Of a stretch of 64,000 nt of DNA, positions 56,202-59,778 are shown one piece after another. How positions within the stretch are numbered: the first letter of the stretch is position 1; each line of letters begins with the position of its first letter. Source of the stretch: Gammaproteobacteria bacterium (GTDB taxonomy: Bacteria > Pseudomonadota > Gammaproteobacteria > Eutrophobiales > Eutrophobiaceae). Where the stretch lies: positions 72,199 to 136,198 of the forward strand of contig CBDCSC010000006.1 in the NCBI GenBank assembly GCA_965221335.1, in the 5' to 3' direction. The notes under the pieces were generated by a model, which saw only the letters and a list, made by a program, of their open reading frames with translations, made no database searches and was not told where the DNA came from. The translations under genes and the position numbers were made by a program.

Positions 56202-57134
56202 TCAGTTGTTCTCCACCGCGGGAACGGAGAGAATGTAGGCAACCAGCGCCTGCAAGTCTTCCGCGGTCATGATGCCGGTGGAGTTGTCAATCACGTCCAC
56301 CATCGCACCGCCGGCATAGTCGCCGTCCGGCATTTCCCCATCTTCCAGGTAGAGCAGCAGGTCATACTCATCCCAATCGCCGATACCGTCCGCTTTGGAT
56401 TGCGTGATATTGGGCACCGGGTCGCCGTCCGGCCCGTTTTCAGTGCCGGCGAGGAACAGTTCCGGGCGGGTCGCGCCGAGCAGGTTCCTGGGGGTATGGC
56501 ACTCACTGCAATGGGTGAGGGCATTGGCGATATACGCGCCCCGGTCCGGGGATGCGTCGTGACCGGCCGGCCGGTACACACCGGGCCTGAAAAACAGCGC
56601 CTGCCAGGCCGGCAGCAGCAGGCGGTTGATATACCAGGGCGTTTCATGGGGCCTGTTCCGGCTTTTCACCGGCGGTATTGATTGCAGGTATGCGAACATG
56701 TCGCGCAGGTCCGCAATATGCATCCGGGTATACGAGGTATAGGGAAACACGGGGTAATAGCGCGCGTTATCAGGCGTGACTCCAACGTGCATTGCGCGCA
56801 CAAAATCCGTGAATGTCCAGGCGCCGATACCGGTTTCCTGATCCGGGGTGATATTCGGGGCAAAGAACGTGCCGAGCGGGGTTTCCAGCTCCAGTCCGCC
56901 GGCAAGGTAGGCGCCCTTGTTGCCGGCATCCGTATGACAGCTTACGCAACCGGCGATATTCACCAGGTACTCACCGTGCCGGATGTCGGCTGCGGCGAGG
57001 TCGTGTTTCGTTATCGCAAAGTCGTCAGGAAGCAGTTCGGGGCGCAGCAACCACCAGCACAGCGCCAGCAGAAAACCTGTGCAGAGAAGCGCGGGAAGAA
57101 ACCGGCGGCGCACCGGATAGTCAGTTTGCGGCAA
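56202..57134 (-). CDS. Diheme cytochrome c (gluconate-2-dehydrogenase cytochrome-like)
   Basis: CVSCH and CSECH, APNITPD.ETGIG.W, N-terminal membrane anchor. Confidence 0.88.
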   Translation of the reverse strand: MPQTDYPVRRRFLPALLCTGFLLALCWWLLRPELLPDDFAITKHDLAAADIRHGEYLVNIAGCVSCHTDAGNKGAYLAGGLELETPLGTFFAPNITPDQETGIGAWTFTDFVRAMHVGVTPDNARYYPVFPYTSYTRMHIADLRDMFAYLQSIPPVKSRNRPHETPWYINRLLLPAWQALFFRPGVYRPAGHDASPDRGAYIANALTHCSECHTPRNLLGATRPELFLAGTENGPDGDPVPNITQSKADGIGDWDEYDLLLYLEDGEMPDGDYAGGAMVDVIDNSTGIMTAEDLQALVAYILSVPAVENN

Positions 57135-57375
57135 TTGGGGGAGGACCGGTTTTATCGATATCCCAGGCTTCGATCAGCAATGATAATTGCCCTTCGATAC
57201 GCGCGGTTCGTTGTTGCAGATCCGCTATATCGCCCTTCATCCCATAAATTTCGTCCTTGATCCCATATATTTCACCTTTTATTCCATGTTGTCCCGTCAA
57301 TATCAGCCCGGCCAATAAAGCACCGACACCGATTATGCTTACAATGATGCTGGTTACATCCGTCAGTTTGTACAT
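57121..57375 (-). CDS. Small TM plus coiled-coil hypothetical protein (84 aa)
   Basis: Strong RBS AAGGAGGT before ATG 57375; hydrophobic helix followed by heptads GIKGEIY-GIKDEIY-GMKGDIA. Confidence 0.65.
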   Translation of the reverse strand: MYKLTDVTSIIVSIIGVGALLAGLILTGQHGIKGEIYGIKDEIYGMKGDIADLQQRTARIEGQLSLLIEAWDIDKTGPPPIAAN

Positions 57376-57479
57376 AAGTACCTCCTTAGACATCATGTTT
57401 TGACCTGCCCATCTCAACACACGTGGATTATGTTGAAATGGGACACTTCAACACAGAGCCATTATTGAGAGGACAGGTC

Positions 57480-58688
57480 ATGAAAGAGTTTACAGTACAA
57501 GCGCATCAGATCGAAACAGTCACCGCACGTAAAGTGATCAACAGCACGTCGGCAGACGGTCGTTATCCGGCCTATATTGGGCTTGACGTGCATAAAGATA
57601 CGATAGCCTATGCCGTTGCGCGAGCTGGTCGGGGCGAGGCCGAATCGAGGGGAGAGATTGGCAACAAGCCGAAGAGCATTGCCAGGCTGGTTGAGCGCCT
57701 GAGCACAGAGTTCGGTGGTGAAATGCTGTTGTTTTGCTATGAGGCGGGTCCCTGCGGGTACAGCATCTATCGTCAACTCATCGCATTGGGTCATGACTGC
57801 CAGGTGATCGCGCCATCGCTGATTCCGCAGAAACCGGGAGATCGCATCAAGACTGACCGGCGTGATGCACGCAAGCTGGCGCAGTTGTTGCGTAGTGGCG
57901 ACTTGACAGTCGTCTGGGTACCGGATGAAGAACAGGAGGCGATGCGGGATCTGACCCGGGCGCGAGATGACATGAAGTCCCAGGAGCGCAAGGCACGTCA
58001 GCAGCTCAATGCCTTTGTCCTGCGACATGGTCATGCCTGGCCCTCACACAAGACGCGCTGGACACAAAGCCACTACAGCTGGCTGGAGTCACTCCGGTTT
58101 GCCCATGACTGGCAGCAGGTCGTGTTGCAGGAGTACATTGATGCGGTTAAAACGGCGACCCGGCGTGTGGCTGATATCACGGCACAGATGGAGCGGGTAC
58201 TGCCGCACTGGTCGTTTGCCCCGGTCGTGGACTCACTGGTGGCACTGCGCGGCATCGACAAGCTGGCGGCGATAGTCTTACTGGCTGAGCTGGGTGATAT
58301 CAGTCGCTTCGAATCCGCTCAGCAATTGATGGCTTTTTTGGGACTGGTGCCAAGCGAACACAGCAGCAGTACCCGCCGTCGTCAGGGGGCGATTACCAAG
58401 ACAGGGAATGCCCATGCCCGGCGGATGCTGGTCGAATCGGCCTGGAGCTATCGCTTCCCGGCACGACAGACGGCCCATCTCAAACGCAAGGCTGCCGGCG
58501 CGTCCGATGAGGCCAAAACCATTGCCTGGAAGGCCCAGAAACGACTCTGTGGGCGCTATAAGACACTGACCCAGGCCGGTAAGAATACCAAGCTGGTCTG
58601 CGTCGCTGTGGCGCGGGAATTGGCTGGATTTATCTGGGACATTGCCTGCCGAGAGATGCCGAAGGTCGATGGCCGGGTGACTCGGTGA
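57480..58688 (+). CDS. IS110 DEDD recombinase/transposase
   Basis: IGLDVHK, CYEAGP, KTDRRDA (DEDD) and GLVPSEHSS (catalytic Ser region), GAITKTGN; RBS GAGAGG before ATG 57480. Confidence 0.95.
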   Translation: MKEFTVQAHQIETVTARKVINSTSADGRYPAYIGLDVHKDTIAYAVARAGRGEAESRGEIGNKPKSIARLVERLSTEFGGEMLLFCYEAGPCGYSIYRQLIALGHDCQVIAPSLIPQKPGDRIKTDRRDARKLAQLLRSGDLTVVWVPDEEQEAMRDLTRARDDMKSQERKARQQLNAFVLRHGHAWPSHKTRWTQSHYSWLESLRFAHDWQQVVLQEYIDAVKTATRRVADITAQMERVLPHWSFAPVVDSLVALRGIDKLAAIVLLAELGDISRFESAQQLMAFLGLVPSEHSSSTRRRQGAITKTGNAHARRMLVESAWSYRFPARQTAHLKRKAAGASDEAKTIAWKAQKRLCGRYKTLTQAGKNTKLVCVAVARELAGFIWDIACREMPKVDGRVTR

Positions 58689-58736
58689 AGCTCATCCAGG
58701 TGAAGCAGCCAATCATATCCACAGAATAGAGGAGAC

Positions 58737-58974
58737 GTGAAACCTGTTGAGTCAGGGCATGGTCAAGCCGGTGTGGAGAACCCTTGTTCGGGCTATACCG
58801 GCATCGGCCATGACGGGATAACCTCAAGCGAGCATTCCCGGTCGATGATCCCTGACACTAGAGAAAGGTCAGCTCCGCGATGCAGTGAAGTCCAGTCGGT
58901 AACCAATCCACGTATATCAGCATGATCCACCATCGCAAACTGCTTGGCCTTGTCCTGACCCAACAGGCGTTCAC
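58737..58974 (+). ncRNA. Putative bridge/seek RNA of the IS1111-type element
   Basis: Closing stem GTGAAACCTGTTGAGTCAGGGCATGGTCAAGC / GCTTGGCCTTGTCCTGACCCAACAGGCGTTCAC. Contains target-complementary TTCGGGCTA (58787-58795) and donor-matching ATATCAG (58914-58920). Confidence 0.75.
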
Positions 58975-59016
58975 AACAGAGTATGAAATTTAACGATTGA
59001 CAGGTCAAAACATATC

Positions 59017-59260
59017 AGCCCGAATATCTCACCAATTCGCTTGTCAGCATCGGATAGATGTTTACTGTCAATGAGTTATGATAATTTGCCGAGTATGTTG
59101 CCATTACACACTGCGCTTGATGCGCCCTCGCTGGTCTTTTTTGCGTTAGCGGGCACATGCTCCCTCAACCAGAAGAACCACTATGCTTTCGGTCGCGAGT
59201 ACCCGCTAACACAAAAAATCCTCAGCGATCATCGCATCAATTGGTGAGATATTCGGGTTA
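59017..59260. mobile_element. MITE family M2, long copy (left end split by the IS)
   Basis: TIR (T)AGCCCGAATATCTCACCAATT / AATTGGTGAGATATTCGGGTTA; internal stem TTTTTTGCGTTAGCGGG / CCCGCTAACACAAAAAA. Confidence 0.82.
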
Positions 59261-59331
59261 GTTGTAATCTGTTTTCCGTATTGAAGAGTATACCTGACGG
59301 GAGGTAGAGAGCAATCTTTTTTGTGTGCCTC

Positions 59332-59778
59332 TTACTTTCTGAAGGGACGGTGGCACGCTTTACAGGTATCCGTCAACTCGCCGAACCTGGCATCGATCGC
59401 CGCGCCGTCACCGGTTTCTACCGCTTCCAGTAATGCTTGTGCTGCTTGTTGGCTTTCGGCAGCGCGGGCTTCAAAGTCGGCCCAGTTTTCCCAGATCTCC
59501 GCTTTTGCGTCGGTTTTCCCTTCCAGTGTCCCTTCCGGGAACAGCAGGGTGATATCCCGAGCCAGTTTTGCCAGCGCCTCTGCGTGCATCTGCATATGCC
59601 CTTCGGCGCTGAACAGGCCGTCTTTCAGCCGCCGCAGCGCGCCGGTATGGCCGCTGATGGCATTCATGTAGTTCTGGCGGTATTTGATGGTTCCGTTCAC
59701 GTCTGCGGCGCCTGCGCCATACGGCAACAGGTAAAATGCCGGTAACAGGGCAATGATAAATAGGTGTTTCAGGTTCAT
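59332..59778 (-). CDS. Class II cytochrome c (cytochrome c'/c556)
   Basis: Signal peptide, IKYRQNYM, AKAEIWENW.DF, C-terminal CKACH..FR. Confidence 0.9.
   Translation of the reverse strand: MNLKHLFIIALLPAFYLLPYGAGAADVNGTIKYRQNYMNAISGHTGALRRLKDGLFSAEGHMQMHAEALAKLARDITLLFPEGTLEGKTDAKAEIWENWADFEARAAESQQAAQALLEAVETGDGAAIDARFGELTDTCKACHRPFRK

Follow-up and report, generated by a model that had tools for sequence, protein, structure and literature searches.

The 64,000-nt stretch of DNA analysed here (called the window below; positions 72,199 to 136,198 of contig CBDCSC010000006.1 in assembly GCA_965221335.1, from a gammaproteobacterium of the family Eutrophobiaceae) carries an insertion sequence (IS) of the IS110 family at 57390-59016 on the + strand, 1627 bp long or 1629 bp when one copy of its core dinucleotide is counted, which sits at the tip of a MITE (miniature inverted-repeat transposable element). 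Very probably, this element is an IS that is guided by a bridge (or seek) RNA and aimed at the tips of MITEs. We base this on its anatomy, on the same kind of site at all seven genomic copies, on the covariation of guides and targets over 13 target classes, on a covarying fold with two loops, on a contig that holds the empty site and on MITE copies that are free of the IS. An earlier note, made from the letters of this stretch, had described an RNA-guided element living on a non-autonomous MITE with an AG core, and the site copies, the covariation, the fold and the IS-free MITEs bear this description out.

The insertion site at the MITE tip

Five of the seven IS copies in the source genome (G000; 6 contigs, 3.49 Mb) are 100% identical, one is 99.94% identical and one is truncated after base 1275. 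All seven are flanked by TAG on the left and by AG-CCCG on the right, and the left flanks are otherwise all different. In the window, the TAG of the left junction (57387-57389) is made of the T of the MITE's flanking TA and the left copy of the AG core, which is duplicated around the IS (57388-57389 on the left and 59017-59018 on the right). AG stands on both sides of all six full copies and there is no long target duplication, as expected for the IS110 family. The right flank continues as CCCGAAT in five copies, as CCCGGAA, which allows a G-U wobble, in one and as CCCGCTT in one, so that the site T-AG-CCCGAA expected for every copy holds as TAG..CCCG in 7/7 and in its full length in 5/7, the two others reading CCCGGA and CCCGCT. 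Recognisable MITE ends adjoin six of the seven copies, at either end of the MITE and in either orientation, and the seventh adjoins repeat-like sequence. Removing 57388-59016 rejoins ..CCTCCTT to AG-CCCGAATATC, as the earlier note had stated, and the same joint is present in nature, since one contig of run X1 joins 57387 to 59017 and skips 57388-59016 (1629 bases) with a 2-nt ambiguity. This means that the insertion is either polymorphic or precisely excised.

The MITE itself is 245 bp long with 22-bp terminal inverted repeats (TIRs); its body lies at 59018-59258, its far flanking TA at 59259-59260, and its near TA consists of T57387 plus A. The near end (T57387 + AG + 59019-59037) and the reverse complement of the far end (59239-59260) agree at 21 of 22 positions, differing by G versus A at base 3, which confirms the single difference reported before; consequently one tip of this copy reads TAG.. 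and the other TAA... There are 14 full-length copies in the genome, with the CCCG..CGGG ends 239 nt apart in 13 and 242 nt apart in one, together with seven shorter derivatives of 46-197 nt and many solo ends. The repeat is thus short, non-coding, multicopy and bounded by terminal inverted repeats, as a MITE should be. TA flanks are found on the right at 10/11 IS-free ends and on the left, as T-A, at 8/10, and the empty site of a divergent relative reads TT, not TA; a duplication of TA at the MITE flanks is likely. At the orthologous site of two congeners (G008 and G007) there is neither MITE nor IS, and the conserved ..CCTCCTT is followed at once by the DNA that the window has beyond the MITE. 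Another locus, L078 (the best MITE match in G004), was considered as a possible empty site and rejected as a different locus. The family was not found in the two other genera of the bacterial family that were searched, gave one weak match among 16 other families of the class and had no match in a plasmid search. The search for an autonomous partner, in which other transposase families were not covered, found no DDE_3 (IS630-type) gene in the source genome; none of the 10 DDE_3 loci of the genus is bounded by the MITE repeat, and three larger intervals bounded by TIRs contain ordinary genes and no autonomous partner. With no autonomous partner found, the repeat behaves as a non-autonomous MITE, and its placement in an IS630-like superfamily would be a guess from the TA flanks alone. 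The source genome also has dozens of solo or differently sized units that share only the terminal TA[A/G]CCCG.A..TCTCACC, which suggests a MITE superfamily with several subfamilies.

Among 217 loose matches, the TIR-like ends comprise 34 with TAA and 30 free ones with TAG, to which the 7 occupied TAG ends are added; all seven insertions are at TAG ends, for which the chance is 0.010. The earlier remark that only the AG-containing end of the window MITE had been hit therefore extends to the whole genome.

The adjacency of IS and MITE in six of seven copies could also be explained if the two formed one composite element, or if the repeat were the extended end of the IS itself, with no targeting involved. 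At least 10 full-length MITE copies stand without the IS, however, and the IS abuts either end of the MITE. Moreover, the MITE family is present in 20 of 22 other genomes of the genus and the recombinase in 1 of 22, the left flanks are all different, and the window locus itself exists in an IS-free form in run X1. We rejected this explanation on account of the IS-free MITE copies and leave it practically no probability.

Two further MITE ends have unusual neighbours. At G000:C1:469740-469765 an IS-free MITE end is preceded by CTAG-ACATC-AG, that is, CTAG, the first 5 nt of the left IS end and a second AG, which looks like the 7-bp footprint of an imprecise loss of the IS between the ATC triplets present at both of its ends. 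At C1:259922, CATATC-AG before another IS-free MITE end resembles the right terminus of the IS.

Probable guides that follow the flanks

Two short patches in the 3' non-coding region correspond to the target. The right-target guide TTCGGGCTA (58787-58795, + strand) is placed on the 5' side of the predicted target-binding loop and would pair with the top strand T-AG-CCCGAA. The left-target guide ACTAG (58857-58861, + strand) lies across from it on the loop's 3' side; as it runs in the same sense as left flank and core, its pairing partner would be the bottom strand; at this locus, only its TAG matches the left flank. A longer guide of 11 nt, TGTTCGGGCTA at 58785-58795, had been proposed for the right side. 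Of these letters, the last 9 nt match T-AG-CCCGAA exactly in reverse complement and covary with the flank. The first two (58785-58786, TG) stay the same in relatives with any target and form part of the neighbouring stem region, which shortens the guide from 11 to 9 nt.

For the comparison, 65 loci with related recombinases (up to 85% identical, most 56-85%) were collected from public genome contigs, plus one from a congener. The pair of subterminal inverted repeats (sTIRs) could be placed in 37 of these 66 loci, and most of them read ..CTAG before a left end ACATC-sTIR and AG.. after a right end sTIR-ATC, with differing right flanks. Ten loci from 8 other assemblies have this kind of repeat, A[G/A]CCCG.A..T.TCACC, as their insertion site, and in six a matching inverted end follows 160-830 bp downstream; the remaining relatives are at unrelated sequences, some of which are palindromic. 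L015, L044 and L026 target short palindromic sequences resembling repetitive extragenic palindromes (REPs); that of L015 is a 50-bp inverted pair, CAGGCTGTTGAAAAAC, and that of L026 is CCCAGGGCGTAACCCTGGG. Of 32 distinct 3' regions, 22 were aligned; L023, L027, L030, L031, L032, L033, L038, L046, L049 and L051 were left out as near-duplicates or because of long insertions, a broken open reading frame (ORF) or a missing flank, and their guides were read separately.

The aligned 3' regions are nearly fully conserved except for a few patches, and the patch homologous to 58787-58795 matches, when reverse-complemented, the T, the AG and the 5-6 bases with which the element's own right flank begins. 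For example, the patch is GCCTGCTA in L015 with the flank TAG-CAGGC, CCTGGGCTA in L026 with TAG-CCCAGG, GGCCCACTA in L050 with TAG-TGGGCC, TTCGTGCTA in L055 with TAG-CACGAA and GACTCCTA in L040 with TAG-GAGTC. The summed contiguous matches amount to 72 versus 23.4 after shuffling (0/20000), and to 50 versus 10.9 (0/20000) with one representative for each of the 13 target classes; the pairing never goes past position +6. The left guide covaries as well (45 versus 26.3, 0/20000), with the patch variants ATTAG, AATAG, GCTAG and TGCAG. The covariation of guide and target in homologous 3' regions, which the earlier note had put forward as a check, is therefore found, and the 9-mer is not invariant among elements with different targets.

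In the right guide, GGTTA in place of GGCTA is found in L012, L013 and L049 of one assembly, in L024 and in L023, whose right junction is AA at TAA-CCCG tips, and these relatives keep TAG at the left guide and at the left junction. The variant may accept both kinds of MITE tip, since U can pair with A or G, and the combination of AA on the right with TAG on the left implies that a mismatch between donor and target core is tolerated. On the chromosome OZ251569.1 (L029-L032 and L059) two guide variants occur together, and some copies are located at sites that fit the guide of the other variant, which suggests an RNA able to work in trans. Only in L032 does the left guide read TTGAAG, where the others have TTGCAG, and only there is the left flank GAAG.

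The predicted bridge RNA

The predicted bridge/seek RNA domain spans 58742-58968 (+ strand) and is closed by a 12-bp stem (58751-58762 / 58948-58959). Its minimum free energy is -96.2 kcal/mol with z = -5.8. Across the 22 sequences, 40 pairs make up the consensus fold, and 19 of these show compensatory changes on both sides; 95.1% of the cells are paired, compared with 34-47% when the partners are slid, and none of 500 shuffles reaches any of the measures. The closing stem holds two domains. In the first, both target patches face each other across one internal loop, with the top-strand guide on the 5' side. The second is closed by GCGATG/CATCGC and has a loop that matches the IS ends. As in other IS110 elements, a structured non-coding RNA predicted from these letters would thus have loops that can pair with target and donor. 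The second loop has on its 3' side the putative left-donor guide ATATCAG (58914-58920, + strand), identical to the terminus of the right end plus the core. It covaries with the right ends of relatives, being ATAACAG in L002 and ATATAAG in L036, with one mismatch in L018 and L050. On the 5' side, the candidate right-donor guide GAAGTC (58887-58892, + strand) is complementary to the core G plus ACATC of the left end at 5 of 6 positions; the complement is exact in L040, and GAC replaces GTC in L029 and L036, whose left ends begin with T.

A further contact may exist between the two ends of the IS. The left end forms a conserved hairpin (57408-57442, + strand) whose loop ACGTGGATT (57421-57429) is complementary to AATCCACGT (58905-58913) in the donor-binding domain of the 3' RNA, and this pairing is 9/9, counting G-U pairs, in 13 of 22 elements. 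One position switches between A-T and G-C. The shuffle test is modest, with 661/20000 allowing wobble and 297/20000 with Watson-Crick pairs only, and the complementarity is mostly a matter of conservation. The contact could serve in antisense control of the recombinase mRNA, as an extra donor contact or as a second protein site.

Taken together, we propose that the IS is active and that a bridge (seek) RNA, some 225 nt long and with two internal loops, would be encoded by its 3' non-coding region. The partners of the right guide would be the last base of the TA that flanks the MITE, the AG core and, inward from it, the first six bases of the terminal repeat, and the second loop would present sequences for the element's own right end plus core (ATATCAG) and, less clearly, for the core plus left end. 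By analogy with IS621 and the seekRNAs of the IS1111 family, the excised circle (junction ..ATC-AG-ACATC..) and the target would be held by one RNA and recombined at the AG dinucleotide, which would then stand on both sides of the insertion. A long guide that reaches into the MITE and a short one that needs only (C)T before the core mean that MITE tips are recognised whatever DNA lies outside, and only those with TAG, not TAA. If so, TAACCCGAA or scrambled targets should not be used efficiently, and the 3' non-coding region should be needed for transposition.

Weighing of the evidence

Several observations weigh against an RNA-guided element or limit what can be claimed for it. The empty-site joint is one contig whose shorter side is 28 nt. 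The right-donor guide is weak, with 5/6 matches, and L011 does not fit it. The 9-mer taken by itself is marginal, since 97 of 3000 shuffles of the 328-nt region give a run of at least 9 nt to the 30-nt rejoined site on either strand; together with the genome copies and the covariation, the 9-nt match is more than chance. The relatives share ancestry, so the shuffle tests overstate independence and their figures are upper bounds on support. The distal pairing is loose. One of the genome's own IS copies matches at only 7 of 9 guide positions; a relative with the same guide (L033, L038, L039, L052 and L062, in one genome) is located at sites that match 6, 3, 4, 1 and 4 bases beyond the core. In L022, L047 and L063 the match is limited to 2 bases, and in L036 the core itself does not pair. 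As for the RNA itself, the signal in RNA libraries consists of four contigs of relatives, 90-99% alike, in the mangrove metatranscriptome X16, which cover 58634-58965. They are too few and too divergent to show expression, DNA carry-over being possible, and are a weak hint at most. No sigma-70-like promoter is present just upstream of 58742 on the + strand (3 sites were found versus 1.4 +/- 1.3 expected, none of them there), the terminator scan gave nothing usefully placed, and a scan of 57000-59600 against Rfam 15 yielded no family match, the sole hit being a chance match to a miRNA (E = 0.97). That the RNA is made, that the recombinase binds it and that recombination follows the chemistry outlined above we infer.

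The marginal single-sequence match speaks for the view that the recombinase protein alone reads the MITE repeat and that the RNA complementarity is incidental. We regard this as very improbable, since among recombinases that are still 57-85% identical the guide patch follows the flank over 13 or more target classes, the second patch follows the left flank, and both patches lie in one loop of a covarying fold.

A stronger competitor, to which we give a minor but real share of the probability, is that the RNA pairing is necessary and insufficient, and that the MITE repeat contributes something more (a 'dual match' of sequence and structure). The addition could be sequence farther along the repeat (..ATATCTCACC), pairing with the far repeat into a hairpin or cruciform, or contact with a protein. 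Under this reading the bare 10-nt CTAGCCCGAA and the full 22-bp terminal repeat would differ as targets. The 57 free sites in the genome that fit the guide perfectly or with one wobble (TAGCCCGRA) comprise 23 TIR-like and 34 other ones, and the occupied sites are TIR-like in 6/6 (P ~0.007); this bias at wobble-compatible sites makes an extra determinant in the repeat possible and so counts against guidance by the RNA alone. When only perfect 9-mers are taken, however, there are 27 sites, 18 of them TIR-like, and the finding that the occupied ones are TIR-like in 5/5 is not significant (P ~0.11). The seventh IS copy, with its 7/9 match, is nevertheless at a TIR-like site (..TTTTCTCACC), and L010, L011, L002 and L025 are in TIRs despite a mismatch at guide position +5; on the other hand, 3/5 copies of the relative with the same guide are at sites that are not TIR-like, and the alignment of the 22 3' regions has no conserved RNA patch complementary to ATATCTCACC. 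Recognition of sequence plus structure is reported for ISPpu10 in the portion of the preprint 10.64898/2026.03.19.712850 that was available. The reading that we prefer remains an IS aimed at MITE tips by its bridge RNA.

Anatomy and classification of the element

The left sTIR ATGTTTTGACCTG (57395-57407, + strand, 13 bp) begins 5 nt inside the end and is kept in most relatives. The right sTIR CAGGTCAAAACAT (59001-59013, + strand, 13 bp) ends 3 nt inside the end and is followed by ATC and then by the core. Extra 12-mers CATATCAGCCCG at C1:613943, C4:949632 and C4:953018 have no sTIR upstream and were dismissed as unrelated. The recombinase gene (57480-58688, + strand) encodes 402 aa with the domains DEDD_Tnp_IS110 (PF01548, 4.6e-18) and Transposase_20 (PF02371, 5.5e-20), an N-terminal DEDD/RuvC-like domain and a C-terminal Transposase_20 domain being the arrangement of the IS110 family. 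It scores 270 bits against the NCBIfam model NF033542 'IS110 family RNA-guided transposase' (cut-off 140), and the transposase structure chains of ISCro4 and IS621 have weak direct similarity to it.

The earlier note had called the element IS1111-type, and this is correct in part. The sTIRs of the IS1111 group are 7-17 bp (PMC11208160), and here the 13-bp sTIR, the longer non-coding DNA downstream of the recombinase gene (328 nt versus 90 nt upstream) and the position of the right-target guide before the left one all agree with IS1111 architecture. However, the transposases of that family have 330-350 aa (PMC11187229), which the recombinase of 402 aa and its relatives of 376-432 aa exceed, and where the motif GL-P----S(T)G would be expected it reads GLVPSEHSSS, the serine being followed by S, not G. 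The element is thus of IS1111 type in its architecture and not in the size and motif of its recombinase.

Some observations on individual copies should be added. The truncated copy (G000:C6:285498-286772) ends 352 bp early and so lacks the entire 3' RNA region together with the right sTIR; an AG within the end of its recombinase gene is fused to a MITE end (..GCCGA-AG-CCCGAAT..), and its frame is still open, without a guide RNA. Since the deletion ends at an AG beside the target half-site, it may have arisen by RNA-guided 'half-site' recombination or by simple microhomology. At G000:C1:157390-163112, two inverted IS copies with their left ends inward surround a 2.47-kb segment with two sulfotransferase-domain genes (PF00685), and beyond the two copies are MITE remnants. 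TTGACA (58997-59002) would, in the excised circle, stand 17 nt from CATCAT (57391-57396); judged from the spacing of these motifs, they would make a junction promoter that drives the recombinase only after circularisation. Next to the insertion, a small ORF on the - strand (57121-57375) encodes 84 aa with no Pfam match, conserved and membrane- or coiled-coil-like. Its ribosome-binding site (57380-57387) abuts the junction of MITE and IS, and the MITE, and now also the IS, separates it from any promoter that lay upstream.

Comparison with known elements and significance

IS4321 and IS5075 reportedly target the TIRs of transposons, namely the terminal repeats of the Tn21 family. They resemble the present element in having sTIRs and in inserting with a specific orientation into the terminal repeat of another transposable element. 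Their target is an internal position in the 38-bp repeat of autonomous Tn3-family transposons, whereas here a non-autonomous 245-bp MITE is hit at its tip. The core of IS621 is CT, and the core here is AG. To the extent that the accessible text of the sources cited below covers them, the other relevant systems compare as follows. IS621 likewise uses one RNA with a target-binding and a donor-binding loop, each with two guides on opposite strands that include the core (PMC11208160; PDB 8wt6), and its recombinase combines DEDD residues with a serine (PMC11208160). In IS621 the RNA is located in the left end with the bottom-strand guide (8-9 nt) first, whereas the RNA predicted here is located in the right end with the top-strand guide, which is the long one (9 nt), first. 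The seekRNAs of ISEc11, ISPa11, ISKpn4 and ISPst6 have the same origin in the 3' non-coding region, a top-strand match 5' of the bottom-strand match, overlap of the two in the target, and sTIRs (PMC11187229). These RNAs were purified with the transposase and reprogrammed, whereas the one described here is known from computation; their transposases have 330-350 aa, and their targets are REPs, attC-like or other sites (PMC11187229). ISPpu9 and ISPpu10 of Pseudomonas putida are also IS110-family elements, located in multicopy REPs and with a small RNA gene downstream of the transposase; they target REP palindromes, not MITE tips.

The closest precedent for the target is IS1111 of Coxiella burnetii, of which 20 of 21 copies are in the MITE QMITE2 (PMC5896051, PMC10969869). 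The earlier suggestion that the choice of target might be undescribed does not hold in this form, as targeting of a MITE has been published for that element (PMC5896051). Both belong to the IS110 family, have a long 3' non-coding region and use a multicopy MITE as landing site. In QMITE2, however, IS1111 enters a GTAG palindrome (REP) within the MITE, at a distance of 10-20 bp from one of its ends, whereas the present element uses the repeat's outermost base together with the flanking TA; in addition, the recombinase here is about 60 aa longer, and the accessible text of PMC5896051 describes no guide-target pairing. A literature search found no IS110-family element whose target is the tip of a MITE's terminal repeat, most subscription journals being outside that search. 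The element or its clade may already be listed in Supplementary Table 5 of PMC11208160 or in the target logos and source data of PMC11187229. Already known, then, are the class of mechanism and the landing in the repeat of another element, be it QMITE2, Tn21-family TIRs, REPs or attC. What is distinct here is the exact site (the outermost base of the MITE repeat plus the flanking T), the asymmetric target loop and the recombinase of 402 aa.

A bolder proposal, which we think has a small chance of being right, is that the element belongs to an uncatalogued clade of IS110 elements, marked by the sTIR ATGTTTTGACCTG, a bridge RNA at the 3' side and a recombinase of roughly 400 aa. This clade would have specialised as a hyperparasite on MITE tips, all of one TA-flanked superfamily, in many Gammaproteobacteria. 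Its loop would be asymmetric, with 9 nt inward and 3-5 nt outward, single U/C changes would retune it between TAG and TAA, and the third conserved 9-nt contact (58905-58913 to 57421-57429 in the left end / 5' UTR) could act as an antisense regulator of the recombinase mRNA or as a subterminal donor guide, neither contact being described for IS621 or the seekRNAs in the accessible text of PMC11208160 and PMC11187229.

The finding provides a readable natural example of the less studied type of bridge/seek RNA, encoded at the 3' side, with four guides, defined ends, seven near-identical copies and an empty site. Moreover, the guides of the relatives have drifted to at least 13 other targets, and they form a useful comparative data set on how IS1111-like guides are designed, as regards guide order, length asymmetry, core wobble and tolerance of distal mismatches. 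No new mechanism is opened by it; for the biology of these elements, it is a case of two selfish elements, one of which finds in the other's terminal repeat a landing pad that is safe and present in many copies.

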